A stretch of 20,816 nt of DNA from a virus (IMGVR_UViG_2565956607_000008:1-20816), one strand, 5' to 3'; shown: positions 579 through 15,385, counted from the first letter of the stretch. Notes: generated from the letters alone by a model not told the origin. Made by a program: numbers and translations.

Positions 579-659
579 TTTATTCCCTTACTGTTGTACC
601 AAAATGTAATATGGAGGAGACTTCCTGTCTCCCCAAATTACTCTACAATTTTTGTGCGA

Positions 660-851
660 TTAAATCAGATCTATTACTAAGTAATCATCGCCAGAGGCAA
701 TGCCGATAGCTTTTCCACCGCTGGTGGATTTCACATCATAAACCCAGGTGCTGGTGCTCACCTTTTGTGGCTCTGATCTAATCAGTGCCGCGAAGGTTTC
801 AAAATCAACATGGGTTACGTTCAGCTTTTGATTGGTAGGTTTCAACTGCAT
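660..851 (-). CDS. Hypothetical small protein (63 aa)
   Basis: ORF on the island strand between two AlpA-like genes; weak ribosome-binding site; no motif recognised. Confidence 0.35.
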   Translation of the reverse strand: MQLKPTNQKLNVTHVDFETFAALIRSEPQKVSTSTWVYDVKSTSGGKAIGIASGDDYLVIDLI

Positions 852-899
852 TCTTAATACCTAATAACGTATTGTTTGTATCCTGTTTGTTTCTGTTCT

Positions 900-1091
900 T
901 TAGTTACTACGCGATTCGGCTATACGTTGATCGATCCAGTCATCGATCTCGCTTTCAATAAAAGCTATTGCGCGAGCACCAATCTTGACTGATTGGGGGA
1001 ATTGTCCTCGGCTCATCAGAGCATATACCCACGCCTTGCTATAGCCAGTGCGTTTCAAAACCTCAGATAGCCGAATCAGCGACTTTTTCAT
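900..1091 (-). CDS. alpA: AlpA-family prophage transcriptional regulator (63 aa)
   Basis: Translation MKKSLIRLSEVLKRTGYSKAWVYALMSRGQFPQSVKIGARAIAFIESEIDDWI is the typical AlpA (CP4-57 regulatory protein) HTH pattern; typical position near a P4-type integrase. Confidence 0.7.
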   Translation of the reverse strand: MKKSLIRLSEVLKRTGYSKAWVYALMSRGQFPQSVKIGARAIAFIESEIDDWIDQRIAESRSN

Positions 1092-1247
1092 ATCTACCTC
1101 GTAATACGTTGCTTGACTATGTGAGATAGTAAATCATTGTTTTTTTAAGTTTTCTGTGAATTTGGAGAAAAAATTTTTGGGAATAGAATTACCCCAAATT
1201 GGGCGTTATTTTTTAGTTCTAACGCACAATTTGGGAACATCCTTCCT

Positions 1248-2003
1248 TTATTTTGGACGCTTTTTGGTTGCTTTTTTCTTAAATTTGGGGGCGTACTTAT
1301 CCAAAGCGTTCGTTAGCAATCTCCGAAATGTATCTGGGTGGGTATCGCTGTCTTCATCGTTCCCGAATATTATGTTGTTTTCTATTACTTGGGCACTAAC
1401 CCTATTGATACTAAGGTTTCCTCCACTATGGAAATCTTTGCTTGATTCAAATAAGGCAATCGCCATTCCGGCGATCATCTTTAAAGCCGTATCTTTTCCT
1501 CTCCAGTTTTGTTCTCTTTCTACTTTTTTTGACAGTGCTCCAATTTCTGGTTCGTTATCTGGAACATTCATATCCAGTTCTGGGAAGAAGTTCACAACCT
1601 CGGAGCGCTTGAAATAAAACGAATCGTAAGACCCATACCAATCATCCTCATCATCGTGATATAAAAAGTCTTCCCCTTTCCTAACGTTGAAAGTCCCTTC
1701 TTCCCCCGGTATCGGGCTCTCCCTGTATTCATGCCCCATAGCCAGAAGACCTAAAAACTCCACACACTGCTTTTCAAAGTCGTCATTAGTTGTAAAACCT
1801 GATACCCAATCGAACTGATAAAAGCCCAGCCCCCCTAAAGTATCTGGTTTAGCTTTGCTCAATCTGTAGTTACTTAAGATAGCGGCAGCGATCATTCTTT
1901 CATTTTCATTGTTTAGTCTTGCCAGTTCGCTGATCAGATTACCAAACCAGATTTTATCTTCTGACTCGTTATAAAACGCATCTAGTCCTGTCATCTTAGT
2001 CAC
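1248..2003 (-). CDS. Hypothetical cargo protein of unknown function (251 aa), translationally coupled to the integrase
   Basis: Start overlaps the integrase stop by 8 nt (1996..2003); acidic central region; no motif recognised. The antisense ORF 1156..1617 is judged spurious. Confidence 0.55.
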   Translation of the reverse strand: MTKMTGLDAFYNESEDKIWFGNLISELARLNNENERMIAAAILSNYRLSKAKPDTLGGLGFYQFDWVSGFTTNDDFEKQCVEFLGLLAMGHEYRESPIPGEEGTFNVRKGEDFLYHDDEDDWYGSYDSFYFKRSEVVNFFPELDMNVPDNEPEIGALSKKVEREQNWRGKDTALKMIAGMAIALFESSKDFHSGGNLSINRVSAQVIENNIIFGNDEDSDTHPDTFRRLLTNALDKYAPKFKKKATKKRPK

Positions 2004-3282
2004 GGCGTGTTCTCCTTCCGAACTCGTAAGGGCTTATATGTATTTCTCGATTGGCGTCCAGATAATCTGCCCACCATTGAAGCATTAGTTTGCGCTCTTC
2101 TAAGTAATCAGCCTTGTGCTTGTAGGCTCTTTTAACGTCTTTATATTCTTTGTGGCTCATCTGGCGCTCTACTGCGTCCTCCTGCCACAAACCGGACTCC
2201 ATCAGGGAACTACAGGCTGTGGCACGGAATCCATGTCCAGTTACGTCCTCTTGCGTGTTATAGCCCATTAAGCGTAATGCCTTGTTTACCGTGTTTTCAC
2301 TCATCACGCCTTTGGTGTTTCTTTCATTCGGAAACACAACATCGTAGCTTCCGCTTAGTTCTCTCAACTGCTTTACAATAGAAACAGCCTGACGGCTAAG
2401 AAGCACGATATGTTCGTCTTTTCCCGTTTTTGTGCCACGGGTGGAAAACCTCACACCATCGATAGGCTCTCTTTTTTTAGGGATAATCCACTCAGCCCGA
2501 TCAAGGTCAAACTCTTTCCAACGGGCAAACCTTAACTCGCTTGAACGAACAAATGTCAACATGGTTAGCTCAATGGCAAGGCGGGTAAGAGGATTACCTT
2601 TAAAGCTGCCCAATCGAGTGAAAAAGTCTGGTAAATCTCTGGGATGTAGTGCGGCATGATGCTTAGTTTCATATTGCATTAACCGGACATCGAGATCATT
2701 CGTGATGATTTCTGTCTTAATGCCGCTCAGACGGGCGCTATGTATGATGTCCTTAACTCGTTGTTTAAGTCGGTTGGCTGTATCGTGTTTCCCGGCGTCA
2801 TCTACCTTCTTAAACAAAGGTAAAATTGTCATCGCCTCCAGTTTGCGAATATCCGAAGTGCCAATGTGAGGGAAAATATACATTTCAAGGCTTCTAAGTA
2901 CGCGTTTTCGTTGGTCTTCGTTCCACATCTGGTGGCTTTCAACCCATTGACGTCCTATTGTCTCAAAAGTGAATGCGCCTTTTTCTTCTGCTTTTGCTGC
3001 TCTTTGCTCTGCTTTGGGATCTATCCCCTTGACTAACAACTTTTTGGCGTTGTCTCGTTTTTCTCTGGCGTCTTGTAAGCTAATGGTTGGATATACACCA
3101 AAAGCAAGTCTGTCTTCTTTCTTATCTGATGGGCGGCGATACTTCATTCGCCAATACTTCGACCCGGTCTGGGATACTTCAAGATAAAGACCACCACCAT
3201 CAGACAATTTATAAGTTTTGTCTCGTGGCTTAGCTGCTTTGCACTGACGGTCTGTTAATTTGTTGAGGGTATTTCTGGACAT
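1996..3282 (-). CDS. int: Tyrosine site-specific integrase, P4/CP4-57 type (428 aa)
   Basis: N-terminal DUF4102-like arm-binding pattern (LTDRQCKAAKP...DGGGLYLEV...YWRMKYR), C-terminal catalytic region with HGFRAT and later Y; lies 165 bp from the 3' end of the tRNA on the same strand. Confidence 0.9.
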   Translation of the reverse strand: MSRNTLNKLTDRQCKAAKPRDKTYKLSDGGGLYLEVSQTGSKYWRMKYRRPSDKKEDRLAFGVYPTISLQDAREKRDNAKKLLVKGIDPKAEQRAAKAEEKGAFTFETIGRQWVESHQMWNEDQRKRVLRSLEMYIFPHIGTSDIRKLEAMTILPLFKKVDDAGKHDTANRLKQRVKDIIHSARLSGIKTEIITNDLDVRLMQYETKHHAALHPRDLPDFFTRLGSFKGNPLTRLAIELTMLTFVRSSELRFARWKEFDLDRAEWIIPKKREPIDGVRFSTRGTKTGKDEHIVLLSRQAVSIVKQLRELSGSYDVVFPNERNTKGVMSENTVNKALRLMGYNTQEDVTGHGFRATACSSLMESGLWQEDAVERQMSHKEYKDVKRAYKHKADYLEERKLMLQWWADYLDANREIHISPYEFGRRTRRD

Positions 3283-3446
3283 GTTGGGGGCACATATACA
3301 ATCGAACCAGCAATGCCCCTAATTATGCCCCATAGATTTACTTGATTTCAATAGACGGAAATGGACGTCATGAGAATAAAATCTCTTTATTTTTATATGT
3401 TTACATGGGATTTATAGACAATGGTAGACGTTGGTGTACAGCGGGA

Positions 3447-3521
3447 TGGTGTCCCCTGCAGGAATCGAACCTGCAATTAGCCCTTAGGAGGGGCTCGTTA
3501 TATCCATTTAACTAAGGGGAC
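3447..3521 (-). tRNA. argW: tRNA-Arg (anticodon CCU)
   Basis: Reverse complement folds by hand into a 75-nt cloverleaf: 7-bp acceptor stem GTCCCCT/AGGGGAC, D-arm GTTA/TAAC, anticodon stem AGCCC/GGGCT with loop CTCCTAA (anticodon CCT), T-arm GCAGG-TTCGATT-CCTGC, discriminator A, CCA end. Confidence 0.9.
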
Positions 3522-3716
3522 ATAGAACTCACTGATTTTTAAGCGTTCAGCTTGTGTTGCATGTTATCCTATCATTCCCCGTACCATCAAGCATTTCATT
3601 CCTTTTATTTCCTTTCCGTTCGCATCAATTCGCTTAGAAAATCACTTCGTTCACTTGCCATTGCGTACACATTGAGTACAGAATGCAGAATTTCAGTGTG
3701 TACAGGATACAGAGCC

Positions 3717-4892
3717 GTGGCCCTTAGTGATACCAAACTCCGTAGCATCAATGCTAAGCCATACAGCGGCGCAGCTGAGGTCACAGATGGTGACGGGCTA
3801 AGTGTACGCATAACTCCCACAGGCACGATCACATTCCAGTTTCGTTATCGCTGGAACGGTAAGCCCGTTCGTCTCTCCATTGGCCGCTATCCCGCTATGT
3901 CTCTCAAGGAGGCGCGCGTAGTCGTCGGTGAGATGCGCGAATTGTACCTCAAGGGACTAAACCCGAAAAATTATTTTGCCAAAGAAGATGGCGAGTTGAC
4001 TCTCAAAGAGTGCCTGGATCAGTGGTGGGGTAAGTATGTTGAAACGCTGAAGCCGAACACTCAGACGCTGTACAAGTCCGTTGTGTACAACACGATGTAC
4101 ACAGAATTCCCGGACGCTCCGGTAGTTAACATTCCTATTTCTGCATGGGTGCGTTTCTTTGATAAGCAGGAAAAGAAGAACAGCAAAAAGGCCAGAGTGC
4201 TTCTTCTACAGCTACGTTCTGTAATGAACTGGTGTATCAGCCGCCAGTTGATCCCATCGTGCGAGGTCCTGAAGCTTAGCGTTAAGAGCATTGGGAAAAA
4301 ACCTGATGTGGGTAGCCGAGTTCTCACATATACCGAGTTGGCAAAAATCTGGCTGGCGCTGGAGAATAACAAGATCGTGACTTCCAACAAGGTGCTTCAT
4401 CAGCTGCTTTTGCTTTGGGGAGCCAGGCTATCAGAGCTGCGTCTGGCTACCGCCAGTGAATTTAACATGGATGATCTTATCTGGACGACGCCAGGAGAGC
4501 ATTCCAAGATGGGTAACGTTATCCGTCGCCCGGTGTTTGGCCAGGTGAAACCTTTTGTTGAAAGGCTCCTCAATGCTGGAAATGATGTTCTGTTTCCCGG
4601 CCAGGAACTGGACAAGCCAATAGATCGCTCATCAGCTAATCTCTATATGAAAAAGTTAAGGAATAAAATTGATATCCCAGAATGGCGAACACATGACTTC
4701 AGGCGCTCGCTGGTGACAAATTTATCAGGTGAAGGGGTTATGCCCCACGTCACCGAAAAGATGTTGGGGCATGAGTTGGGAGGAGTGATGGCGGTGTATA
4801 ACAAGCACGATTGGCTGGTAGAACAGAAAGAAGCATATGAGCTATATGCAGATAAAATTTTTTGGCATGTCAAGAAAATAAATGACCAATAA
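3717..4892 (+). CDS. int: Tyrosine integrase of the lambdoid prophage (about 391 aa; GTG start proposed)
   Basis: The ORF track gives 3552..4892, but the conserved integrase N-terminus (ALSDTKLRSINAKP...DGDGLSVRI...FQFRYRWNGK) begins at an in-frame GTG at 3717 preceded by AGGA; C-terminal catalytic region has HDFRRS. Start choice is uncertain. Confidence 0.8.
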   Translation: MALSDTKLRSINAKPYSGAAEVTDGDGLSVRITPTGTITFQFRYRWNGKPVRLSIGRYPAMSLKEARVVVGEMRELYLKGLNPKNYFAKEDGELTLKECLDQWWGKYVETLKPNTQTLYKSVVYNTMYTEFPDAPVVNIPISAWVRFFDKQEKKNSKKARVLLLQLRSVMNWCISRQLIPSCEVLKLSVKSIGKKPDVGSRVLTYTELAKIWLALENNKIVTSNKVLHQLLLLWGARLSELRLATASEFNMDDLIWTTPGEHSKMGNVIRRPVFGQVKPFVERLLNAGNDVLFPGQELDKPIDRSSANLYMKKLRNKIDIPEWRTHDFRRSLVTNLSGEGVMPHVTEKMLGHELGGVMAVYNKHDWLVEQKEAYELYADKIFWHVKKINDQ

Positions 4893-4928
4893 CTTTAGAC
4901 GTAAGTATTGAATTCTCTGGGGTATGAA

Positions 4929-6245
4929 ATGGAAATGATATTTAATGAAGATAAAGATATTGAAAATGCATTGCAGTGGCTATCTAAAACTCTACCAGAA
5001 CCTAATTCATTGTTTGATAGAATGTGTCTGGCACAAGAGAGTTATATTAAAGAATCGGCCTTGAAGGTTAATATTGGAAAGGAATCGAAAATAGAATGGC
5101 ATGGATGTGATGTTGTCGCAGGTTTTTTCTCTCAAGCTAAATCCTATCTTGATAATCGACGTTCTTATGATATTTCAGCTGCATCTAAAATACTTCCTTG
5201 GGTGAAACAACTTGGTGTTAATGTTGAATATCTTAACAATATTCCAGGTGCGGTAGAACGTGCTAAAAGGATGTTGGAAAGTTATACCGTTTATCCGGAT
5301 AATGCATTGTTTGAATTAATATTAGCAGGAAATTATGCGGCTAAAGGTTTCGATGTTGAGTTTATACCTGAGCAGAAAGGAATAGCTAAAACTCCTGAGT
5401 TTAAATGTAGCTTTGATGGTAAGGCTCTTTTTGTTGTTGAATGCAAAAGATTAAAAAAGGGGCAATACGCCCAACAAGAGGAGTCGGCTCATTCAACAAG
5501 AGCTTCTTTTATTGAATCTCGTGTACATCTGAAAAGAATGAGTGTCTGGATGGATGTCACATATAAATGTGAAGTAAATGAAACACCGGACGATTATCTT
5601 TTAAAACATTTATGTAATTATTATGGGAAAGAATATTCCTGGAGTGATGACTACGGTAGTGGTTTTATAAAGCCTGCAAATTTGCGTAGGGTGAATGATG
5701 ATATTAAATTGAACGGTTCTCTATCATTACACACCAAATTGGCAAGACTAATTAAAACATCTCCACTCGATGGTGAGTTTTACAATGTTTATGCGTTTGG
5801 TCGACCAGATGAACGAGATCCACGTTTTTTCTCTAAAATTAATTATGCAACATTACTGACATGGCGAAATGTAAGCGAGGTGTCATTAGAAAACAGGTCC
5901 AGGCATATCACTAAACATTTAAAAGAAATTGAAGATCAAATATCAAATAATGGACTTGGTGTAGGGCATTTAGTTATTGATGCTGACGTACAAAAAGATG
6001 TCGCTGATAAACGGAGGGAAAAAAATATTGAGGCTGCACTTTCTTTCCGGATAAAGTCCAAGCTTGTTCGGTTAAATATTCATTATCTTGTTCCTCGTGT
6101 TGATGAAGATAATTCGTGGCTGGTGGACGAAACTCTTGAATTTTTCAGCGGTGACGAGTTGATTAGTCATTTGTTTCCTGAGGTGAAATTATTTTCAGGG
6201 ATGGAACTTTTTGAAAATGATTTGCCTGCATGGCATCAGAAATGA
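4929..6245 (+). CDS. AT-rich cargo protein with a PD-(D/E)xK nuclease-like motif (about 438 aa)
   Basis: ATG at 4929 preceded by GGGG (ORF track uses TTG at 4908). Residues GFDVEF...x...FVVECKRL give a D...ExK pattern. Immediately downstream of the integrase and followed by an intrinsic terminator. Confidence 0.6.
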   Translation: MEMIFNEDKDIENALQWLSKTLPEPNSLFDRMCLAQESYIKESALKVNIGKESKIEWHGCDVVAGFFSQAKSYLDNRRSYDISAASKILPWVKQLGVNVEYLNNIPGAVERAKRMLESYTVYPDNALFELILAGNYAAKGFDVEFIPEQKGIAKTPEFKCSFDGKALFVVECKRLKKGQYAQQEESAHSTRASFIESRVHLKRMSVWMDVTYKCEVNETPDDYLLKHLCNYYGKEYSWSDDYGSGFIKPANLRRVNDDIKLNGSLSLHTKLARLIKTSPLDGEFYNVYAFGRPDERDPRFFSKINYATLLTWRNVSEVSLENRSRHITKHLKEIEDQISNNGLGVGHLVIDADVQKDVADKRREKNIEAALSFRIKSKLVRLNIHYLVPRVDEDNSWLVDETLEFFSGDELISHLFPEVKLFSGMELFENDLPAWHQK

Positions 6246-6252
6246 TTTTTAT

Positions 6253-6280
6253 GCCACCCAGGATAGGGTGGCTTTTTATT
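6253..6280 (+). terminator. Intrinsic terminator after the int-cargo unit
   Basis: Hairpin GCCACCC-AGGATA-GGGTGGC followed by TTTTTATT, directly after the stop at 6243..6245. Confidence 0.6.
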
Positions 6281-6469
6281 CTAACTATGGCTACCACTAA
6301 TCCCACCATTTTCAATCCATTGAAACACAGCTTTTCTGCTATATCGCGTAGGATAAGTGAGAACTGGATTTGGGAAATTATGATCTTTACGTAAACGCCA
6401 TACTGCTGTTTTTTTCTTGCCCAGTAATTCGAATACTTCTTTCTCTTCCATAAAATCTGTAGAAGTCAT
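6281..6469 (-). CDS. xis: Excisionase-like HTH protein (about 62 aa)
   Basis: Internal ATG at 6467..6469 with GAGGTG ribosome-binding site; translation MTSTDFMEEKEVFELLGKKKTAVWRLRKDHNFPNPV... is an AlpA/Xis-type HTH; located beside int. ORF-track start at 6544 would overlap the next gene. Confidence 0.6.
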   Translation of the reverse strand: MTSTDFMEEKEVFELLGKKKTAVWRLRKDHNFPNPVLTYPTRYSRKAVFQWIENGGISGSHS

Positions 6470-6476
6470 AAGCACC

Positions 6477-6998
6477 TCATTCAAAATTACCGTTAAAAAT
6501 ACACGTTCCACACCCACCGCGAGCCCCTTCAGTACAAACATCACAGCGATCTACTTTTTTACGAGGTCGTTCTTTGATGTGCAGCCTTGGTTCCCCGTCT
6601 TTTGGTTCCGGCCATGAGCGCTGCTTGTTCACCGCCAGCTTTTCGATCATCGCCTGGGTAATCTGCTCATCTGCAATACCGGAACGGTGCTGAGCGTCCC
6701 ACAACAGGAACTGCATATCCGCCCACTCTGAAAGGTCGTCTGGTGCCGCTGCGGCCTCCAGCGCTTCTTTGCTGAGGTGCTTCAGCGGGCCAACCGGGCC
6801 GACATTGCCGAAAGTTGCCTGTGACCACTCGGCGTGCTCGTTGCGTACCTGTTCTCTGTCCATTGCGTCCAGTGCTATGCGGGCCAGCGCTTCAGCTTCT
6901 TCTGCTGGCAGCATTACGTTGCTTCCAGCTCCATAGGTTCCACGCCATGATTTAATTTTTTCCAGGCGCTCTCTCGCCAGTTTGGTTATATCAGTCAT
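6477..6998 (-). CDS. MazG-like nucleotide pyrophosphohydrolase domain protein (DUF550-like) with C-terminal Cys cluster (about 173 aa)
   Basis: Start ATG 6996..6998 overlaps the upstream stop (ATGACTGA); EWADMQFLLWDA resembles the MazG-type E-x-x-D helix; C-terminal CDVC...CGTC. The longer ORF-track N-terminus overlaps a convincing neighbouring gene. Confidence 0.55.
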   Translation of the reverse strand: MTDITKLARERLEKIKSWRGTYGAGSNVMLPAEEAEALARIALDAMDREQVRNEHAEWSQATFGNVGPVGPLKHLSKEALEAAAAPDDLSEWADMQFLLWDAQHRSGIADEQITQAMIEKLAVNKQRSWPEPKDGEPRLHIKERPRKKVDRCDVCTEGARGGCGTCIFNGNFE

Positions 6999-7191
6999 CG
7001 GAGTTATCCTCGCAGCAGTAGTGAGCGCCGTCCGGGTCAGTACTTTTGAAACCGCAGATATCACACTCAATTTCGTCATGGGCTTCTTCATCGCATTCGT
7101 GACTTTCCGGATCGTCGGCTTTGTAATAACCGCCGCACAAATTGCAGCGGACTTCTGCCACATCGTCATAGTTAGTAGTCCCGGTTATCAT
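6991..7191 (-). CDS. Small highly acidic cysteine-rich protein (66 aa), zinc-ribbon-like
   Basis: Translation rich in D/E with CxxC...C...CxxC...CC; ATGA overlap with the upstream gene at 7188..7191. Confidence 0.55.
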   Translation of the reverse strand: MITGTTNYDDVAEVRCNLCGGYYKADDPESHECDEEAHDEIECDICGFKSTDPDGAHYCCEDNSDD

Positions 7192-7427
7192 TTGTCAGCC
7201 CCCTCATGTAGCTGCTCTGCGATGCACGAAAAAAAAGACTCCCGCGTATGACTTTTAAGAGCTGATGCAAACGCCGCGTTAAGAACGGCAGCATCACAGC
7301 CGTCATCGATATAGAGTGCGATTTTTTTCTCCAGGCGCGCTTTGGCTTCCTGCAGCTGCATACCCCGGCAGGCGCGCGGGATATATTCCGCAATCTGTGA
7401 AATAGCCTTTTCGTTCTGTTTAAACAT
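7188..7427 (-). CDS. Hypothetical early-operon protein (79 aa)
   Basis: ATG 7425..7427 with GAGGTGA ribosome-binding site; overlaps neighbouring genes at both ends. Confidence 0.5.
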   Translation of the reverse strand: MFKQNEKAISQIAEYIPRACRGMQLQEAKARLEKKIALYIDDGCDAAVLNAAFASALKSHTRESFFSCIAEQLHEGADK

Positions 7428-7623
7428 GCTTCACCTCGATAGGCTTGATGGTGTCGAGCAGCAGTCGGCGGCGCGTATTTTCTGCAAAGTGACGGCGCCC
7501 GGTTTCTTTGTGGTAAAACTCGTTTTTGCCGACGACCCACATCCGCTCTGTCTGGTGCAGTTTTTTTACCTTCGGACCGTCTTTGGTGATAACGGTGCCG
7601 GTATGGGTTTTTACGATTGTCAT
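7420..7623 (-). CDS. Hypothetical early-operon protein (about 67 aa)
   Basis: Internal ATG 7621..7623 preceded by GGGGAGG; ATGA overlap with the stop of the ParB-like gene. Confidence 0.5.
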   Translation of the reverse strand: MTIVKTHTGTVITKDGPKVKKLHQTERMWVVGKNEFYHKETGRRHFAENTRRRLLLDTIKPIEVKHV

Positions 7624-8405
7624 ACAGCCTCCCCAAGCACCCAACGGAGTGCGCTCGCATACTCACCCTCGGCTGATTCCAGGGCTTTTGTGATTTCTTT
7701 GCGGGTTTTCAGGCGCGGCTTTGCCTCGCCGAGGATCTGACGCTGACGCCGGGCTTTTTCATGGCCGGTTGTGCCAGCAGTTGCCGCTTCGATTTCAGAT
7801 ACCTTCTCCCGCTGCTCTTCAGGTTTAAGCGATGCCAGCTGACGCGCCTGGGTAACAGTGACCGTTCCGGACTCCACTGCATCGCGAACAGCCTGGGTGG
7901 CATCCAGCAGTGACAGCGTTGCGCGTACGGTCTGGACACTCACGCCAAACATCAGCGCTAAATCGTCCTCGTCGTGCCCGCGCTCCAGCGCATCAGCCAT
8001 TTTCTTTGCTCGGCCCAGTGGCGTATCTGCTTGGCGGATTTCGTTAGCACTTACCATCGCCTGCGCCATGCGAACGGCGGAGCCACGTTTAGCGACTGCC
8101 GGAACCAGTAACGGTTCTTTACCCTCTTTCAACAGTCGCTTGTTGGCTTCCAGTGTATGGCGCACACGCTGGCGACCATCGACTACACAAGACAGCCCTG
8201 TTTCCGGGTCTTTCCAGACGATAATCGGCTCAAGAACGCCCTGATCCATGATGTTCAGCACCATTGCCTCGCTGATAGGCAGGTGGATACGCTCATCGTA
8301 AAGCGGGTGCGTTTTGTCCGTAACCAAGTGCAGGTTTTCAGGTTCGAACGTTAAAACATTCGTTTTGCCGCTGGCGCCGTATACCACCTTTGAGTCTTTA
8401 GCCAT
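7620..8405 (-). CDS. ParB-like nuclease domain protein (261 aa)
   Basis: VVDGRQRVRHTLEA resembles the ParB/sulfiredoxin-fold arginine motif; common in lambdoid early regions. Confidence 0.65.
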   Translation of the reverse strand: MAKDSKVVYGASGKTNVLTFEPENLHLVTDKTHPLYDERIHLPISEAMVLNIMDQGVLEPIIVWKDPETGLSCVVDGRQRVRHTLEANKRLLKEGKEPLLVPAVAKRGSAVRMAQAMVSANEIRQADTPLGRAKKMADALERGHDEDDLALMFGVSVQTVRATLSLLDATQAVRDAVESGTVTVTQARQLASLKPEEQREKVSEIEAATAGTTGHEKARRQRQILGEAKPRLKTRKEITKALESAEGEYASALRWVLGEAV

Positions 8406-8704
8406 CAGAGAGCCTCTACGTTACGGAAGCTGGTGGGGCAAATTGCTTTCAAATCGCGCATTGCTTCGAGGACATGCAGATTTGTGCGCTTCTTGGTGTG
8501 TCGCTCGGTCAGACGATCACACTCTTTCGCCCAGGATTTGACCTCTGCGAGAAGGGCGTCACGTTCGGTTCGCGTCTGGCGCAGAGCTACATTCGAAACA
8601 TCGAGGACGGTAGCCAGTTCCCTGATGATTGCTGCCTGTGCTGGTGGCATAGTTTGGGCTATTTCGTACGCCTGTTTAATAAGTTGATTTGCTGTCTTAG
8701 CCAT
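8405..8704 (-). CDS. Hypothetical protein, first gene of the early-left operon (about 99 aa)
   Basis: Internal ATG 8702..8704 with GGAGAA ribosome-binding site (MAKTANQLIKQAYE...); ATGA overlap with the ParB-like gene start. Confidence 0.5.
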   Translation of the reverse strand: MAKTANQLIKQAYEIAQTMPPAQAAIIRELATVLDVSNVALRQTRTERDALLAEVKSWAKECDRLTERHTKKRTNLHVLEAMRDLKAICPTSFRNVEAL

Positions 8705-9007
8705 CTTTTGTTCTCCATCTGACGCGCTGCAACGCGTAAATTTAGGGTGCAGCAACCCAACCCATGAGAGTGGGTGAATAGCTGGTTAAAATTTCTTGCT
8801 GATGGGGAGCCGCCACTGCAATGGCGGCACGTTAGTTCTCCACACAACGGAAAGAGCACTGAAGCACTGGAAACTCACTTGACTAACACAGTGCTTTTTC
8901 CTGTTGTGTGCCGGGCTTCCACCGGCTCCCATCTGTTTTTAAAGCCACTCAGATATCGTCTGGGCTGCGTCGTCTCCGTGCATCACACGTTTTCGCGACC
9001 GCTGAAA

Positions 9008-9067
9008 TAAATCTAAAATAATTTAGTTTTTTGGTCAAGGTGAATAAACTAAATATTCTTAGTTTTC
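9008..9067. promoter_or_regulatory. Putative left operator/promoter region (OL/pL)
   Basis: Two 14-bp near-palindromes CTAAAATAATTTAG (9013..9026) and CTAAATATTCTTAG (9049..9062) sharing half-sites with the OR repeats; a leftward TTGACC / TAGATT-like promoter overlaps them. Confidence 0.45.
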
Positions 9068-9092
9068 ACCATTGATAGAGTAGAGGAAAGGA

Positions 9093-9737
9093 TTAGCGGC
9101 GCATCTGGCGGCGGTGTTCGACAACGACACCGATGATGGAAATTTTTTCAACAGCAGAGTTTAAAGCAGCAAAATCAGGGTTTAACGGGACCAATTCGAA
9201 AACCTCTTCACCATTTTCGTTGACACCCCTTGCACGGTATTTTTTAAAAGTGGCGTATTCACTACCGTTTTTGGCTACAACATAGTCCCCAGGACCTGGA
9301 CACAAGTCAGGATCCACAATGATAGTGTCTCCCTCTTTGAACTCTGGCTCCATAGATTTTCCACGTACCTTAAGAGCGAAGGTACCAAACGAATGAGCGC
9401 CGTTTGTTAAAATGTAATCCACGGCACCCTCTAAATTACGAGCATCACTTTCAGATGTCCAAGTTCCTGCTTGAACCCAACTTATGATAGGGATCTGCAT
9501 AGCGCCTAAGTTGCCAGGCGCTACATTGGAGAGTTCCTCTTTACCGGTGAGGAGAAAGTCCTCAGAAACACCAAAATACCGAGCTAATTTTGTCAGCGAG
9601 ACTCCTCCGGGTATGTTTTGGTCTTTCTCCCAGTATCCAATGGTGACATCTGTCACTCCAACAACTTTACCCAGTTGCTTCTGGGTAAGCTTACGATCCT
9701 TTCTTAATGATTTTAAACGACTTCCAAATGTGCTCAC
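9093..9737 (-). CDS. cI: CI-like prophage repressor (HTH_XRE N-terminus, S24 LexA-like peptidase C-terminus; 214 aa)
   Basis: N-terminal MSTFGSRLKSLRKDRKLTQKQLGKVVGV... HTH; C-terminal ...KVRGKSMEPEFKEGDTIIVDPD... Ser-Lys dyad region typical of autocleaving repressors; GTG start; divergent from cro. Confidence 0.85.
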   Translation of the reverse strand: MSTFGSRLKSLRKDRKLTQKQLGKVVGVTDVTIGYWEKDQNIPGGVSLTKLARYFGVSEDFLLTGKEELSNVAPGNLGAMQIPIISWVQAGTWTSESDARNLEGAVDYILTNGAHSFGTFALKVRGKSMEPEFKEGDTIIVDPDLCPGPGDYVVAKNGSEYATFKKYRARGVNENGEEVFELVPLNPDFAALNSAVEKISIIGVVVEHRRQMRR

Positions 9738-9760
9738 TGTGGTTCGCCATGTTATGAAAA

Positions 9761-9824
9761 CTAAATTATCTTAGCTTTAATTGACCTAAATTTGCTTTGG
9801 TCTTAATATCTAAATAAATTTAGG
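9761..9824. promoter_or_regulatory. Putative right operator region (OR) with three repressor-binding palindromes
   Basis: CTAAATTATCTTAG (9761..9774), CTAAATTTGCTTTGG (9786..9800), CTAAATAAATTTAG (9810..9823), spaced about 24 bp apart between the divergent cI and cro starts. Confidence 0.5.
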
Positions 9825-9831
9825 AGGGTGT

Positions 9832-10041
9832 ATGACAACAACAGAGTTAGAAACGTTCTTCGGAACCCCCAACAAGGCAGCAGACTTCTTCGGTGTTTCT
9901 CCTGAGGCTTTTTATCAATGGCGAAAACGACCGGGCAGTTTGATCCCAAAAGGTCGTGCTGCAGAAGCTGCATATCGTACTAATGGGCAGCTTGTTTTTC
10001 GACCTGAACTTTACCAAAAGGCTACAGATTCAGCTGCTTGA
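9832..10041 (+). CDS. cro: Cro-like small DNA-binding regulator (69 aa)
   Basis: ATG preceded by AGGAGG at 9821..9826; divergent from cI across the operator region; small basic HTH-like protein. Confidence 0.7.
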   Translation: MTTTELETFFGTPNKAADFFGVSPEAFYQWRKRPGSLIPKGRAAEAAYRTNGQLVFRPELYQKATDSAA

Positions 10042-10186
10042 AAGTAACTACAAATCGAATTTTAAAGGGGTAGGTGTGACAAAAAAAATTGAATCAGAGG
10101 TGATAAAGCGGTTGCAAGCGCTCAACCCTGAAACGGTAAGGCTGGATGAAATGAATCGAGTAGTGACTCTGATCGGGTGGACCTTA

Positions 10187-10510
10187 TCAGAAAAACTTCC
10201 AGACACCTATAGCGATGAGAACAAAGGCAAGGATATCGAACACGACTCCGATTCGCTTGGGATTTCTCGGGTAACAAGAAATGGTTGCTGTAACCCGACC
10301 GAGGCCGTCGTACTGGAGCATTTCCTGGTAGGGGTGGTTAATCCACTCACCAATGCCCCAAAAAAAGACGCCAAGGGAAACCAGTGCTGTAGGGCCAGGA
10401 GGATATGCAGAAAGAACTCCAGTACCGTTCAGCAGAAAAACGAATGCACCAGCGACAATCAAAACTTTGTACCAGTAGTCCAGAGTCAATTTAGACAAAG
10501 GGTTATTCAT
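10187..10510 (-). CDS. Small integral membrane protein (107 aa, about 3 predicted TM helices), possible moron
   Basis: Strongly hydrophobic segments with aromatic belts. The overlapping plus-strand ORF 9956..10546 translates to Cys/Arg-rich text typical of antisense noise. Weak ribosome-binding site, so uncertain. Confidence 0.4.
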   Translation of the reverse strand: MNNPLSKLTLDYWYKVLIVAGAFVFLLNGTGVLSAYPPGPTALVSLGVFFWGIGEWINHPYQEMLQYDGLGRVTATISCYPRNPKRIGVVFDILAFVLIAIGVWKFF

Positions 10511-10568
10511 TTAATACACCGGCTGTTCCGTGGGCTAAGAAAGTGATTTTAAGCGAAGGGTTATCAAC

Positions 10569-11036
10569 ATGGTAGAACAAAAGCAAAGTTTGAAAGATGT
10601 AGTCAAGGCTATGTGTAAGTCCATACATGGTGGGCGTGAGGCTATGGCTGGCGCGCTAGGCATGACCTTAACGCAGTTCAATAACAACCTTTATGAGAAA
10701 AATGGTTGTCGTTTCTTCGAAGTCAGCGAACTGGAAGCGATGGAGGACATTTCCAACACGTCGTTACTGGCTGACTACTTCGCTCGCCGTCGTGGTGCTC
10801 TGCTGGTGGATGTTCCGCACCTGGAAGAACTGGACCGCGTGGACTTATTTAGCCGGGCAATGCGTACCTCTGCCGCCAGGGGGCAGGTTGATCAGATTAT
10901 CGAACAGGCGCTTGAAGATGGCGTTATTGAAAGGCACGAGGCCGAAGAAATCATGGTGCATCACCGCCGTCACCTGGCAGCTCGTGAAGAAGAGATTGCC
11001 GCAATCATCACGCTTTTTTCACGCAAAAAGAAGTGA
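10569..11036 (+). CDS. CII-like phage regulatory protein (CP76/YdaT-like family; 155 aa)
   Basis: Position downstream of cro; N-terminal pattern (LKDVVKAMCKSIHGGREAMAGALGMTLTQFNN) recalled as the phage CP76-type CII family. Recollection, not a search. Confidence 0.6.
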   Translation: MVEQKQSLKDVVKAMCKSIHGGREAMAGALGMTLTQFNNNLYEKNGCRFFEVSELEAMEDISNTSLLADYFARRRGALLVDVPHLEELDRVDLFSRAMRTSAARGQVDQIIEQALEDGVIERHEAEEIMVHHRRHLAAREEEIAAIITLFSRKKK

Positions 11037-11273
11037 CGCCAGCGAGTTGCAGCTCCTGGCGTCGTGGCGTGTCGTTATCAGTGGAGATTACTAACGCATG
11101 AACAGTTTATCAACACAGTACCGCAGGTCGCAACTTGTAGCGCGTCCGGTTCCTGGTGGATCAGGGCCGGTGCAGTTCGTGTATGGGGTAAGAGTACCAG
11201 GCGGGTTCGAGCCTGTCTGCTACCAGTTTGCTCAGTGGGTGGTAGGGGACTTTAACGGCCAGGCGGAGAAAGT

Positions 11274-11453
11274 ATGCGAGAACTTAACCGATGGTTCAGA
11301 GATCACTACGGTGTCCCGGTCAGGGTCATACGCTGGGAGCCCCAAACACAGCGCGTTATATACCTGCGTGAAGGGTACGAGCATGAATGCTTTAGCCCCC
11401 TCGAGCAATTCAGACGTAAATTCAGAGAAATAAAGGACGATCATGAGCACTAA
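11274..11453 (+). CDS. Small basic protein (59 aa), below the ORF-track size cut-off
   Basis: ATG 11274 preceded by GGAG; translation MRELNRWFRDHYGVPVRVIRWEPQTQRVIYLREGYEHECFSPLEQFRRKFREIKDDHEH; its stop overlaps the start of the replication gene. The alternative ORF 11098..11433 looks low-complexity. Confidence 0.35.
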   Translation: MRELNRWFRDHYGVPVRVIRWEPQTQRVIYLREGYEHECFSPLEQFRRKFREIKDDHEH

Positions 11454-12396
11454 ATTAACAGGATACGTCTGGGACGCTTGTGCATCTTCGGGGATGAAGC
11501 TATCCAGCGTGGCAATCATGGCGCGCCTGGCTGACTTCAGCAACGATGAGGGTGTTTGCTGGCCTTCTATTGCGACCATATCCCGTCAGATTGGCGCTGG
11601 TGAAAGTACTGTCAGAACGGCGATAGCTGCACTTGAGAAAGAGGGGTGGCTCACTCGTACGCAGCGCCGCAACGGCAACCGTAATGCATCGAACGTCTAC
11701 CAGCTCAACGTTTCCAAACTACAGAAAGCGGCATTTTCTCACCTGTCAGTTTCTGACACATCAAAATCTGACGCGTCAAAATCTGATGCGTCAAAAATTG
11801 ACCCCTCAAAATTTGATGCGTCGGAATCCATCAAAAAAACCGGTTTTGACCCGTCAGAATCTGGTGGGGATCCGTCAGTAAAATCAACTACTGATCCATC
11901 AGATATAAATCCTTCTTGTCCGGACGCTTCGCAACCGGACGAACAGGGCTCTGCTGATGAATTTCTGTCACGACATCCTGACGCGGTGGTGTACAGCGCT
12001 GCAAAGCGGCAGTGGGGCAGCCAGGACGATTTAACCTGCGCTGAGTTCATTTGGGGAAAAATTATCAGCATGTACGAACTGGCGGCTGAAAGTGATGGTG
12101 AGGTAGTTCGCCCTAAAGAACCAAACTGGACCGCATGGGCGAATGAGGTTCGCCTGATGGTGATGCAGGACGGGAGAACCCATAAACAAATTTGCTCACT
12201 TTTCAAGCGCGCCAACAAAGATTCGTTCTGGTGTAAAAACGTGCTCAGCCCGTCGAAGCTGCGGGAAAAATGGGATGAGCTGTCGTTAAAACTATCTGCT
12301 CCACTCAATAGCTCCCGCCAGGAATCGTCCATTTCGCGAGCCAGCTTCGACGGGGTTGATTACTCATTGCCAGAAAACTCGGGGTTCCGCACATGA
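11443..12396 (+). CDS. Replication initiator, lambda O-like architecture (317 aa)
   Basis: N-terminal winged-helix-like region, then pentapeptide repeats (SKSDA-like) encoded by 15-bp DNA iterons, then C-terminal domain; stop overlaps the dam start (ATGA). Confidence 0.7.
   Translation: MSTKLTGYVWDACASSGMKLSSVAIMARLADFSNDEGVCWPSIATISRQIGAGESTVRTAIAALEKEGWLTRTQRRNGNRNASNVYQLNVSKLQKAAFSHLSVSDTSKSDASKSDASKIDPSKFDASESIKKTGFDPSESGGDPSVKSTTDPSDINPSCPDASQPDEQGSADEFLSRHPDAVVYSAAKRQWGSQDDLTCAEFIWGKIISMYELAAESDGEVVRPKEPNWTAWANEVRLMVMQDGRTHKQICSLFKRANKDSFWCKNVLSPSKLREKWDELSLKLSAPLNSSRQESSISRASFDGVDYSLPENSGFRT
11751..11835. repeat. Iteron array inside the replication gene (putative prophage origin)
   Basis: Four to five tandem 15-bp units TCAAAATCTGACGCG / TCAAAATCTGATGCG / TCAAAAATTGACCCC / TCAAAATTTGATGCG containing TGACGCGTCA-type palindromes, followed by an A-rich stretch. 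Confidence 0.55.
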
Positions 12397-13202
12397 GCAA
12401 GCCATTTCTGAAATGGGCTGGTGGAAAGTATACCCAGCTGGCTGACCTGTTCGTGCATATCCCGGCAGGGAAACGCCTGATAGATCCATTCGTTGGTGGT
12501 GGGTCAGTATTCCTGAACAGCGAAAAGCACGCAGATTACCTGCTGGCGGACGTTAACCCGGACCTGATTAATCTGTATCAGATGTTAGCGGTCGTGCCGG
12601 ATGAAGTGGAATTGAAGGCCCGCTGGATGTTCGAGCACATGCGGTCACCAGATGGTTATGAGCTGATCCGTTCCGAGTTCAACGCTCAGACGCTGGATGC
12701 TACTGAACGCGCAGCTGCATTCCTGTATCTCAACCGGCATTGCTTCAATGGCCTGATGCGCTACAACCAGGCTAACAAATTCAATGTGGGCTGGGGAGGC
12801 TACAAGGCTCCGTATTACCCGATGGATGAGATGAAAGCCTTCGCGGCTATGGCGCATAACTGCGTATTCATGACTGCTGATTACCGTCGGACAATCAGCC
12901 TGGCCGGGAAAGGGGATGTGGTTTACTGCGATCCGCCTTACGAACCGATGCCGGGAACAGCCGGATTCACTGCCTACGCCGCTGGTGGGTTTAACTGGGA
13001 GAACCAGGTAGACCTGGCGAAGCAATGTGTATCTGCCTTTCACCGCGGGGCTCGGGTAGTAATTTCTAACTCATCCGCACCGAAGGTTCTCGATCTGTAC
13101 CGGGAGCATGGTTTTAACCTGCAATTCATCAAAGCGCGCCGTTCGATCTCCTGCAAAAGCAGTACGCGGGAAGTCGCCAAAGATGTCGTGGCTATCCTGT
13201 GA
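12393..13202 (+). CDS. dam: DNA adenine methyltransferase, Dam family (N6-adenine, orphan; 269 aa)
   Basis: Motif FLKWAGGK near the N-terminus and catalytic DPPY (VYCDPPYEP); no adjacent restriction endonuclease gene. Confidence 0.9.
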   Translation: MSKPFLKWAGGKYTQLADLFVHIPAGKRLIDPFVGGGSVFLNSEKHADYLLADVNPDLINLYQMLAVVPDEVELKARWMFEHMRSPDGYELIRSEFNAQTLDATERAAAFLYLNRHCFNGLMRYNQANKFNVGWGGYKAPYYPMDEMKAFAAMAHNCVFMTADYRRTISLAGKGDVVYCDPPYEPMPGTAGFTAYAAGGFNWENQVDLAKQCVSAFHRGARVVISNSSAPKVLDLYREHGFNLQFIKARRSISCKSSTREVAKDVVAIL

Positions 13203-13226
13203 GCTGCCTGCCGTGGAGAAAATGAC

Positions 13227-14207
13227 ATGAGAGCATTACTCACTCCTGAAATTGCCCCACGCATGGGCATTGTTCTGCTTCGCCCTGGCGCCGATCTGAT
13301 GCCGATGTTCAGGAGAGGGCGGGTACTGATTGAGCCTGCACCGGAAAAATACAGTGAATACGCAACCGGCGCCATTCCTCCCGCCACGCAGCCACTGGCA
13401 GAAGACCCGGTTTTGAAACCAGTATTCGAAAACCACGACGTCATTCTGCGTGCGGGGGGGATTAGCTCGCTGGAGGCCGAGCTGGAGCGTCGTTTTGAAT
13501 GCCAGTACCCGCACGGCTCATGGCACAGTGAAAATTTTACGCTGTTCCGGCATGAGCCTGGCAGCATCCGGCTTTGCTGGGCCTGCGACAACCTGGTGCG
13601 AGATCAGTACACAGAGACGCTGGCAGGCATTGCGCGTGAGAACCTGGTATCCTGGCTGATAAAGGTCATCCGCTCACAACTGGGGTTCAACGAAGACCAT
13701 CAACTGACGATCCCGGAGTTGTGCTGGTGGCTGGTTATAAACAATCTGGCGCACGTCATTCCTGAATCGCTGGCCCGGAAAGCCCTGCGATTGCCGGAAA
13801 TAAAGCATCAACCAGTGATGAAGGAGAGCGATATTGTGCCGGAGCCAGCGGCGAGCGAAGTGGTGCAGAAAAAGATTCTCGGTCTTCGCGTAGATCCTGA
13901 AACGCCGGAATCATTCATGCTGCGACCAAAGCGTCGCCGCTGGGTAAACGAGAGCTGGACGCGCTGGGTTAAGTCCCAGCAGTGTGTCTGCTGTAACAAA
14001 CAAGCAGATGATCCCCATCACCTGATAGGCCACGGACAAGGTGGAATGGGAACAAAAGCGCATGACCTGTTTGTGTTGCCGCTTTGCAGAGCGCATCACG
14101 ACGAGTTGCACGCTGACACCGTGGCATTTGAGGAGAAGCACGGCTCACAGCTGGAGCTGCTGTTTCGATTTCTGGATCGTTCGCTGGCAATTGGCGTGCT
14201 GGCTTAA
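13227..14207 (+). CDS. DUF968-like phage protein with C-terminal HNH/zinc-binding motif (326 aa)
   Basis: C-terminal CVCC...HHLIGHGQGGMGTKAHDLFVLPLCRAHHDELH pattern; position in the nin-like region between replication genes and Q. Confidence 0.65.
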   Translation: MRALLTPEIAPRMGIVLLRPGADLMPMFRRGRVLIEPAPEKYSEYATGAIPPATQPLAEDPVLKPVFENHDVILRAGGISSLEAELERRFECQYPHGSWHSENFTLFRHEPGSIRLCWACDNLVRDQYTETLAGIARENLVSWLIKVIRSQLGFNEDHQLTIPELCWWLVINNLAHVIPESLARKALRLPEIKHQPVMKESDIVPEPAASEVVQKKILGLRVDPETPESFMLRPKRRRWVNESWTRWVKSQQCVCCNKQADDPHHLIGHGQGGMGTKAHDLFVLPLCRAHHDELHADTVAFEEKHGSQLELLFRFLDRSLAIGVLA

Positions 14208-14225
14208 TTCAGTGGAGATGAGTTA

Positions 14226-14570
14226 ATGCGTGATATGTATGAAATTTTAGACCGCTGGGGAGCATGGGCTGCAGCTGATAGTAGTGGTGTTGATTGGAAA
14301 CCCATTGCCGCAGGTTTTAAAGGTTTGTTACCTCATGGAAAGAAAACACGTCATCAATGCGATGATGATGAAGGAATCATGATTGACGGCTGTGTAGCGC
14401 GATTGCGGAAGTATAAGCCAGAAGAGTATGAGTTAATAATTGCTCATTTTGTTATTGGTTTCTCATTAAGAAGCATCGCGAAGAAACGGAAGTGTTCTGA
14501 TGGGACCATCAGGAAGGAATTGCAGACTGCAATGGGGTTTGTAGATGGTTGTTTAGAAATGGTTAACTGA
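14226..14570 (+). CDS. Late-gene antitermination protein Q (QuuD-like family; 114 aa)
   Basis: MRD...LDRWGAWAA...DWKPIAAGFKGL...RHQCDDDEG...DGCVARL...CSDGTIRKELQTAMGFVDGCL closely follows the pattern I recall for DLP12-type Q antiterminators. Confidence 0.8.
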   Translation: MRDMYEILDRWGAWAAADSSGVDWKPIAAGFKGLLPHGKKTRHQCDDDEGIMIDGCVARLRKYKPEEYELIIAHFVIGFSLRSIAKKRKCSDGTIRKELQTAMGFVDGCLEMVN

Positions 14571-14594
14571 AGTCTTAATGTGACTTCAGTTAAC
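14562..14594. terminator. Perfect 13-bp-stem hairpin (33-bp palindrome) between convergent Q and the reverse-strand cassette
   Basis: GTTAACTGAAGTC-TTAATGT-GACTTCAGTTAAC; overlaps the Q stop codon; only weak U-tracts on either side, so it may be a bidirectional terminator or a protein-binding palindrome. Confidence 0.4.
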
Positions 14595-14606
14595 ATTAAC
14601 GGCTAA

Positions 14607-15068
14607 TTAAAAGCTTTTAAGATATTTGCTTTTGATTTTTTCACTAACACTTTGTAATTCATGCAGTGTTGTGCCAACTTTATCAGCTTCATATTTTGTG
14701 TCATTGGTACATGCTTGGCGCAACTCTGCTATGAAACCTGTATCTTTTGTGCGGCTTGCATCAAGGAGTTGAATGCGTTCACATATAAACTCAACATGCC
14801 GTACGGACGATGTAAATATGAAATAAGATACTCTTTTGTCTTTTTCTTTATTCTCAAGTAGTTCCAGCATTTCACTATAAATGAAATCTAACTTGTAAAA
14901 CAACTCGTCTATCAATCTGTTTATTTCAAGTTTTTTGAGATTGTTTGCATTATTTTTCCGCGCCAAGTAGGCAGTAACTATCCATCCAATGATAGTTAAA
15001 CATATGCCCACAATAGCAATTATGGTAGCTGGTAGTGCCCATAAATTTGGAGTAACGGCTTGTTCCAT
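14607..15068 (-). CDS. Cassette gene C: single-pass membrane protein with helical cytoplasmic domain (153 aa)
   Basis: N-terminal hydrophobic helix (LWALPATIIAIVGICLTIIGWIVTAYLA) then charged helical region; 1-nt TAATG overlap with gene B; GAGGGATG ribosome-binding site; AT-rich. Confidence 0.7.
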   Translation of the reverse strand: MEQAVTPNLWALPATIIAIVGICLTIIGWIVTAYLARKNNANNLKKLEINRLIDELFYKLDFIYSEMLELLENKEKDKRVSYFIFTSSVRHVEFICERIQLLDASRTKDTGFIAELRQACTNDTKYEADKVGTTLHELQSVSEKIKSKYLKSF

Positions 15069-15385
15069 TATTTGGCATCCCTCAGAGCATCATTGATATA
15101 AGTAACAACCTCGGCAACTAATGCCGGATCCTTACTTTTAAGATTTTTCTTTAGGTTGTTAATCTTATCTTTGCTGATTCCCTTTCGCACCAGTCCACCA
15201 AAGGCCTCCTCCAAAAATGAGGATCCATACCCGAAAACCCCGTCAAAGTCAACGCAAATTTCATCATTTTCCAGTATTGCAGGAACTAAATAAAATTCGC
15301 GGAATTTTTCGCCACTATTCTCTCCAAGCGACTCGTAGCGAGGGCCAGGATATCTGGAGAATTCCTTGATATATAAAGTTTTCAT
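15068..15385 (-). CDS. Cassette gene B: STAS-like (DUF4325-like) small protein (105 aa)
   Basis: VDFDGVFGYGSSFLEEAFGGL parallels the anti-sigma-factor-antagonist motif around the phosphorylatable serine; strong AAGGAGAAG ribosome-binding site; ATGA overlap with gene A. Confidence 0.7.
   Translation of the reverse strand: MKTLYIKEFSRYPGPRYESLGENSGEKFREFYLVPAILENDEICVDFDGVFGYGSSFLEEAFGGLVRKGISKDKINNLKKNLKSKDPALVAEVVTYINDALRDAK

Follow-up and report, generated by a model that had tools for sequence, protein, structure and literature searches.

The gene between the P4-type integrase gene (int) and alpA in a 10.3-kb genomic island of Escherichia coli, here called ORF251 after the 251-amino-acid (aa) product of its open reading frame (ORF), probably encodes a backbone regulator that would bind an array of short repeats through its C-terminal domain (C1) and so gate the alpA promoter. 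The gene was identified in IMGVR_UViG_2565956607_000008:1-20816, a 20,816-nt stretch of DNA from a virus that is referred to at its full length as the window; positions 600–3600 are 100% identical to E. coli Ec42, in which RefSeq lists ORF251 as a hypothetical protein. In Gram-negative phage-inducible chromosomal islands (PICIs) the master activator is an AlpA homologue; helpers induce alpA transcription, auto-activation by AlpA occurs in EcCICFT073 and EcCIMP1, and these islands have no known repressor (PMC6092414; PMC11773190). Whether a repressor exists, and by what route a helper signal reaches the alpA promoter, has been a standing question since 2018 (PMC6092414). For islands with this class of protein in the position between int and alpA (the int–alpA slot), a candidate answer is a protein family with putative cognate operators at the alpA promoter. 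Neither a described protein between int and alpA nor such an array was found in the searchable literature.

ORF251 (1248–2003, minus strand) begins with a GTG codon that has AGGAG 8 nt to its 5′ side, and the int stop codon (1996–1998) lies inside its start, giving an 8-nt overlap. This overlap had been proposed in an earlier reading of the window from its sequence alone (the sequence-only reading) and is borne out by the ORF coordinates; the physical coupling of the gene to int gains further support from a Klebsiella homologue with the identical 8-nt overlap. Ninety-five loci were collected through an ORF251-type protein or the C1 profile alone: 3 individual homologues, 5 from reference genomes (Pantoea, Acerihabitans, Mangrovibacter, Leclercia, and one metagenome-assembled genome), 45 from IMG/VR, and 42 from metagenomes. 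The C1 gene is followed by alpA on the same strand, 160–225 bp downstream, in 93 of the 95 loci; both exceptions are truncated contigs, and a P4-type int precedes the C1 gene in every locus where the contig reaches that far. The fixed place of the C1 gene beside alpA argues that ORF251 is not cargo, and ORF251 belongs to the conserved backbone, being kept in all island variants while the cargo region varies. The suggestion of the sequence-only reading that the gene is cargo, possibly anti-phage, is thus not upheld: there is no PADLOC match, the gene is backbone, C1 occurs only in the int–alpA slot in 93 of 95 loci, and the cargo lies elsewhere. On comparative grounds ORF251 is probably a two-domain regulator of a kind not described before and probably not anti-phage cargo. 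As a possible counterpart, yfjH in the intA–alpA gap of CP4-57 of E. coli K-12 was considered and set aside; its arrangement differs, the gene being on the opposite strand and 43 bp away from alpA.

Comparison of 64 unique spacers (C1 gene to alpA) supports the repeats as a genuine cis-regulatory array upstream of alpA. YTNCCA occurs 2–8 times per spacer in the alpA sense and 0–2 times in antisense, in all 64 spacers. Two sites have a fixed position relative to the alpA ATG, −70 and −91 (each in ~56 of 60 spacers), and further sites lie at about −113, −134, −145, −157, −177, and −187; spacings are of two or three helical turns, and the positions fit a helical phasing of ~10.5 bp. The core motif across C1 loci is A-Y-T-N-C-C-A, with ACTTCCA in most loci, ATTTCCA/ATTTCTA in one clade, ATTACCA in L005 and L008, CTCCCAA in Klebsiella, and TTCCCAA in the window and L002 (TTCCCAAAWT in the fuller window version). 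Inspection of the alignments gave no clean rule matching single C1 residues to motif sub-types. In L019, L059, L061, L093, L098, and L010, a GC-rich hairpin directly past the stop codon of the slot gene has a repeat copy as part of its loop, and could be a terminator with an operator embedded in it.

A natural exchange between E. coli islands replaces C1 and the repeats together. The Ec42/window and L008 islands are 98.2–98.5% identical on both sides of a replaced block of 424 bp, one edge of which falls in the inter-domain linker of ORF251 and the other 55 bp before the alpA ATG; within it both C1 and the repeats change, the latter from TTCCCAAATT to ATTACCAAAC. Outside the cassette, AlpA shows 0 differences between the two islands, each of three small proteins shows 1, and Int shows 2, both of which are also present in L002, which retains the window motif. 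AlpA is in fact identical at 63 of 63 positions in the window, L002, L005, and L008, in spite of the difference between TTCCCAAATT and ATTACCAAAC repeats. The cassette types were counted in 166, 47, and 7 complete genomes.

The same association extends to other occupants of the slot. A second scan was anchored on AlpA and blind to ORF251; every int–alpA module that it recovered with int on the contig holds in the slot a co-oriented gene for 240–380 aa, or two smaller ones. These slot genes fall in several families. The largest family besides that of C1 bears another C-terminal domain, C2 (...DDPLxLAIxxRN...ACPIKR after a coiled coil), and is accompanied by 3–6 ACCCTNAGGGT palindromes, conserved in position, upstream of alpA (L121, L123, L124, L128, L129, L134, L163, L168, L169, L172, and L183; ~230 bp upstream of alpA); these candidate operators are perfect palindromes of 11 bp. 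Other slot families carry palindromes of their own (TTTGCATGCAA, ACCGCAATTGCGG, and TTCCGGAA); two of these classes correspond to Pfam DUF6387. AlpA of the C2 and other-slot loci is 90–98% identical to AlpA of C1 loci. In a factorial comparison of N-terminal type by C-domain, mean counts per unique spacer of YTNCCA and CCCTNAGGG were, respectively, 4.67 and 0 for type A with C1 (n = 15 spacers), 0 and 2.0 for type A with C2 (n = 2), 4.67 and 0 for type C with C1 (n = 3), and 1.92 and 3.46 for type C with C2 (n = 13); CCCTNAGGG is absent from all 64 C1 spacers. It is thus the C-domain of the slot protein that operator type follows, and not the N-domain, AlpA, or Int. The sequence-only reading had offered AlpA or another regulator as the ligand of the repeats: the first choice is disfavored by AlpA proteins that are identical or nearly so opposite differing repeats, and the second stands, with ORF251 itself as the best candidate.

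ORF251 has few close homologues, among which residues 1–145 are near-invariant and residues 146–251 split into at least three types. In an AlphaFold2 (AF2) model built on a 29-sequence alignment (mean predicted local distance difference test score, pLDDT, 84.5; an earlier run with 7 near-identical sequences reached only 39 and was unusable), an alpha/beta N-domain is joined by a disordered linker (residues 146–167) to a helical C-domain with a short hairpin. The N-domain opens with a winged-helix-like α-β-α-α-β-β topology and is proposed as a sensor or effector module. C1 (~80 aa) is basic and helical with a Lys-rich tail; its modeled helices span residues 170–187, 199–213, 223–237, and 239–246, and its consensus is W..F.GKDTALmmIAGLAiALEKsGgky.RGgKLNKSAVA..A..AI...G.G...T.KAL..LL..AL. 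An exhaustive profile search found that distant relatives share either the N-terminal or the C-terminal part of ORF251, and C1 ends proteins of ~190–340 aa bearing at least five unrelated N-terminal regions. Over 64 family proteins, charge is split between the parts, the median isoelectric point being 9.15 for C1 and 5.0 for the N-terminal region. C1 is proposed as the operator-binding module of ORF251. Profile and sequence searches with ORF251 of Pfam, NCBIfam, PHROGs, PADLOC, and PDB sequences returned zero matches, and fold searches gave no significant match. In particular, no Cro/CI-type helix-turn-helix (HTH) was found by Pfam, NCBIfam, or PDB sequence searches (fold matches were not significant), PF05930/HTH_17 left ORF251 unmatched (0 Pfam families; the adjoining 63-aa gene does match PF05930), no defense family in PADLOC-DB matched at E ≤ 0.1, and no Bro-N, KilA-N, ANT, or related Pfam domain was present in ORF251 or 17 relatives and slot proteins. 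No homology is claimed between C1 and the C-domains designated C3, because hhalign gives that pair a probability of 1.3%.

Within the window, CCCAAATT with at most one mismatch occurs at 1159, 1193, 1196, 1228, and 1282, forming a cluster (1158–1289) upstream of alpA, and AATTTTTGGGAA lies at 1172–1183. Five hits in 135 bp arose in 1 of 300 whole-window first-order Markov simulations and have P = 0.0004 under a local-composition model, so that the cluster of at least five copies described by the sequence-only reading at the 3′ end of the ORF and upstream of alpA is real; no second CCCAAATT-type cluster is present anywhere in the 10.3-kb island. The window copies are co-oriented on the alpA-sense strand, centered at the distances given in Table 1, and their layout is that of ~60 unrelated loci. 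The near-palindrome reported at 1193–1203 is present and can now be described as part of one arm of a 16-nt inverted repeat (1193–1208 and 1220–1235, 94% complementary), whose two arms are operator-like sites 1 and 2. The resulting hairpin is a possible terminator or insulator of the int–ORF251 transcript; a terminator scan found no canonical terminator between ORF251 and alpA, and missed this hairpin because it has no T-run. The copy inside the 3′ end of ORF251 could serve as an auxiliary site or simply result from Lys/Pro-rich coding sequence; L002 likewise has a CCCAATTT copy.

Several other uses of the repeats were considered and rejected. An isolated exact CCCAAATT at 632–639, upstream of a 64-aa HTH gene, is probably a chance match and not a regulon site, because the backbone around it is invariant and the site stays constant where the motif differs, independently of the cassette. 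Integrase arm-type sites are disfavored by a distance of ~2.2 kb from the att core and by an Int that does not vary with the motif, and iterons or a replication origin by a conserved core that is too short and by the presence of a separate Rep or primase. Nor does the system fit an iteron-type replication initiator, whose marks are conserved iterons of 17–22 bp beside an AT-rich/DnaA-box origin and a Rep that has tandem winged-helix domains. In mainstream loci (e.g., L011, L016, and L121) the alpA leader from −35 to −1 is highly conserved (CCTCGTAAACCGCAATAGACGTTACGAGGTAAAYATG) and contains a possible Shine-Dalgarno-pairing hairpin (−9 kcal/mol, z = −2.2), hinting at an additional layer of translational control there; the window leader is without such a hairpin.

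Table 1. Features of the int–alpA region of the window; operator and promoter assignments are predictions.
Feature	Position	Strand	Basis or remark
tRNA-Arg(CCT) (argW), integration site	3447..3521	-	ARAGORN
P4-type tyrosine integrase (int)	1996..3282	-	Pfam Arm-DNA-bind_3, Phage_int_M, Phage_integrase; NCBIfam PRK09692
ORF251 N-terminal domain, residues 1-145, acidic, alpha/beta	1569..2003	-	Near-invariant among E. coli island variants
ORF251 linker, residues ~146-167, low confidence	1503..1568	-	pLDDT <50 at residues 148-160; BLAST breakpoints Ec42/window vs L008
ORF251 C1 domain, residues 168-251 and stop	1248..1502	-	Alignments; AF2; operator type tracks domain
Exchangeable cassette, C1 and distal alpA-upstream repeats, 424 bp	1146..1569		DNA alignment; blastn Ec42 vs L008
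Repeat copy in ORF251 3′ end, CCCAAATT, encodes P-K-F	1282..1289	-	Motif search
Inverted repeat/RNA hairpin directly after ORF251 stop	1193..1235	-	Fold -20.1 kcal/mol, z = -5.2
Operator-like site 1, TTCCCAAATT, ~-145 from alpA ATG	1228..1237	-	Also outer hairpin arm
Operator-like site 2, GCCCAATTTGGGG, ~-113, palindromic	1192..1204	-	Motif search
Operator-like site 3, TTCCCAAAAATT, -91	1172..1183	-	Position kept in ~56/60 unique spacers elsewhere
Operator-like site 4, TCTCCAAATTC, ~-76	1158..1168	-	Abuts and overlaps predicted -35
Predicted alpA promoter, TTCACA, 16 nt, AATGAT	1133..1160	-	Consensus match only
alpA, 63 aa, AlpA/Vis family	900..1091	-	Pfam PF05930, E = 3.6e-18

In the mechanism proposed, ORF251 would be produced together with the integrase while the island is quiescent, and C1 would occupy the co-oriented, helically phased repeats. 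The putative operators extend across the whole spacer, beginning at the ORF251 stop and reaching the −35 region of alpA, so that C1 binding would decide alpA transcription; since AlpA is the self-activating master switch of excision and replication in related satellites, ORF251 would in turn gate induction of the island. The variable N-domain would take the inducing signal, for example a protein of a helper phage or helper plasmid. Repression could come about in two ways, with the −35 region occluded or with read-through from int–ORF251 blocked, and is favored because the protein would be present in quiescence, the array reaches the −35 region, and no canonical terminator precedes alpA. By extension, and with a good deal more reserve, the int–alpA slot of enterobacterial satellite-like islands might be the seat of a class of modular gatekeepers, in each of which an operator-binding C-domain and a sensor N-domain, both exchangeable, are combined. 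Such proteins would fill the place of the repressors still missing from Gram-negative PICI-like elements, sensing the helper as functional counterparts of Stl made from structurally new domains; C-domain/operator cassettes would then set immunity types, and N-domains would set the inducing helper.

Several points weigh against a regulator acting through C1. The domain has no recognizable DNA-binding fold, and the alpA promoter is assigned solely by consensus match. C1 of the window and C1 of L002 are just 42% identical, yet they face a common repeat motif; the co-variation therefore holds at the level of sub-clades and not per residue. The correlation between C1 and motif could largely reflect shared descent of adjacent DNA, for which reason only recombinant cases are informative. 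As to the sign of regulation, repression is only modestly preferred to signal-dependent activation. Finally, proteins of the recombination directionality factor (RDF) type bind helically phased direct repeats (PMC7498355), so that the form of the array by itself would suit AlpA too.

The repeats might instead be read by an outside factor that turns on alpA, such as a Cox/Apl/Xis-like RDF of a helper phage or plasmid, or else a host protein; in that case ORF251 would not bind DNA, and its C-domain would co-vary through interaction, antagonism, or linkage. The late-left promoter of P4 drives vis, a homologue of alpA. That promoter is activated by P2 Cox (PMC3936717), and RDF sites are described as phased direct repeats (PMC7498355); helpers induce alpA through an inducer that has not been identified (PMC6092414), and mainstream alpA promoters lack a good −35, as is common in activator-dependent promoters. 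This account is nonetheless unlikely: it leaves unexplained why an outside specificity should be coupled to a domain of an island protein in at least five slot families, each with its own operator, the slot C-domains are basic, and a cassette edge in the inter-domain linker better suits a self-contained module of domain plus operator. AlpA itself, acting at auto-activation sites to which ORF251 is unrelated, is a less probable reader still. It does auto-activate in EcCICFT073 and EcCIMP1 and belongs to the excisionase/RDF-type HTH group, whose members typically bind phased direct repeats (PMC7498355), but the 63-residue identity of AlpA across islands with TTCCCAAATT and with ATTACCAAAC repeats argues against it, as do AlpA proteins 90–98% identical that face either ACTTCCA direct repeats or ACCCTNAGGGT and other palindromes. 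AlpA may bind a conserved promoter-proximal segment.

Recognition could also occur in RNA, with ORF251 binding the repeats in the 3′ untranslated region of the int–ORF251 transcript and controlling termination or read-through into alpA. The strong strand bias of the motif, the stable hairpin whose arms the window repeats form right past the stop codon (Table 1), and the repeat copies seen on sequence inspection in hairpin loops of several other loci speak for such a mode; it is very unlikely all the same, in view of the best-conserved sites (−70 and −91), which lie at the promoter and outside the hairpins, of the C2 palindromes, which, being perfect over 11 bp, have the look of sites for dimeric DNA-binding proteins and cannot fold into RNA hairpins, and of the ~10.5-bp phasing, a property of double-stranded DNA. 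Least credible is a role of ORF251 as an anti-phage or superinfection-exclusion accessory beside repeats that are incidental, being mere hairpin arms and Lys/Pro-rich coding sequence. The slot does host many unrelated families, like hotspots, Staphylococcus aureus pathogenicity islands (SaPIs) bear accessory genes beside int (PMC6092414), and a regulator could have an interference role as well; however, ORF251 matches no PADLOC or other defense family, it is kept in all island variants while the true cargo region varies, and arrays at fixed positions that track the C-domain over ~90 loci cannot be incidental.

Of 5426 complete E. coli genomes, 222 (~4%) carry the island backbone. The 3′-terminal 23 nt of the tRNA at the integration site (3447–3469) recur 10.3 kb leftward in Ec42 as a direct repeat (TGGTGTCCCCTGCAGGAATCGAA; L001, 12540 and 22848), and these repeats bound the island. 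To the left of the tRNA, all on the minus strand, follow int, ORF251, alpA, two genes for 63 and 64 aa, and a gene for 128 aa. Beyond the window, the rest of the Ec42 island encodes an HUH-type Rep (PF23343, E = 7.6e-7), two proteins of unknown function (821 and 330 aa), and a serine recombinase. The variable cargo is found not in the int–alpA slot but in the interval from the HUH Rep to the serine recombinase (resolvase), at 14028–17482 in L001 (Ec42), 14130–15988 in L005, and 13090–14631 in L009; it consists of the 821- and 330-aa pair of unknown type in Ec42 and of a PARIS-like pair, an AAA_15/21 ATPase and a DUF4435 protein, in L005. A Klebsiella island has a reverse transcriptase just past the resolvase. 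Like Gram-negative PICIs, the island has co-oriented int and alpA at one end and a specific att site; no primase or packaging genes of the Gram-negative PICI kind are annotated in it, and the HUH Rep and serine recombinase are present instead. Such an island may represent either a satellite or an element that is mobilizable.

A lambdoid/HK97-like prophage occupies window positions 3552–20816 on the 5′ side of tRNA-Arg, so that the tRNA is sandwiched between island and prophage. The prophage has a tyrosine integrase of its own (~3717–4889, plus strand) and, farther to the right in Ec42, carries genes for a LexA-like repressor, Cro/CI, RusA, holins, terminase, and portal. Directly past its integrase, a 445-aa ORF (4908–6245, plus strand) matches only phrog_37220 (unknown function), has no PADLOC match, and could be a moron or a defense candidate. 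An early operon lies at ~7143–10179 on the minus strand, where RefSeq lists for Ec42 a protein with a DGQHR domain (DndB-like), one resembling ParB/RepB/Spo0J, and two hypothetical proteins, and at 16715–16907 on the plus strand the Rfam small RNA STnc100 is matched at 76 bits (gathering score 47).

If ORF251 is the regulator proposed, quiescence and induction would be explained at least for islands with this slot-protein class, and an N-domain used as bait would offer a handle on helper-encoded inducers. Two or more new families of DNA-binding domains would be added, and a hypothetical protein of ~4% of complete E. coli genomes would be better annotated. The natural specificity swaps among islands provide directly testable material. 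A gene adjacent to an integrase is not automatically defense cargo, and a tempting misreading is here corrected.

Among known systems, the closest functional analogue is Stl/Rpr of SaPIs and Gram-positive PICIs, which is int-linked and modular, has a variable sensor, and controls induction. ORF251 has an Stl/Rpr-like placement beside int (overlapping, on the same strand, and kept in position in 93 of 95 loci). Both proteins combine a DNA-binding module, putative in ORF251, with a highly variable one, which in Stl binds helper-phage inducers; both control, in ORF251 as proposed, the promoter that starts the excision and replication program, and both occur in allelic specificity types. ORF251 differs in having no sequence or fold similarity to Stl and no recognizable HTH, in a regulated gene that lies downstream on the same strand and not divergently, in a target that is alpA and not a whole operon, and in the reversed order of its modules, the variable part being N-terminal in ORF251 and C-terminal in Stl. 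The ORF251 cassette resembles the immunity regions of lambdoid and P2-like phages (imm434 and imm21) in that a specificity domain and its putative cognate operators are swapped between near-identical elements; however, the exchange involves the C-domain only and not a whole repressor gene, the protein family is unrelated, and the repeats are co-oriented and phased, whereas immunity operators are two or three in number and dyad-symmetric.

AlpA/Vis/Cox/Apl RDF systems, such as P2 Cox on the P4 late-left promoter, share with the window a direct-repeat array on one face at the alpA or vis promoter, but ORF251 lacks PF05930/HTH_17, is four times larger, has two domains, and faces repeats spaced mostly by two or three turns and not by one. 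The Bro-N/KilA-N network of satellite regulators has in common with the slot proteins a co-oriented int-to-alpA module and similarly extensive domain shuffling; in its published zone only Int, HTH_17, and AlpA are named, Bro-N, KilA-N, and ANT are missing from the slot proteins, and the window island carries a resolvase and an HUH Rep in place of a primase and packaging genes. In PIME1 elements, a LuxR-family regulator beside alpA is needed with AlpA for helper-dependent excision, and its authors speculate that it senses the helper (bioRxiv 10.64898/2026.01.12.698999). The window island is alike in having a second regulator, as proposed for ORF251, in the int/alpA region; the PIME1 regulator differs in belonging to the LuxR family, in being divergent, and in being non-homologous to ORF251, and PIME1 carries the transfer genes trbJ and trbL. 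A mobile-element master regulator with cognate operators is thus of a kind already known, and what appears to be new here is the putative gatekeeper class together with its array.

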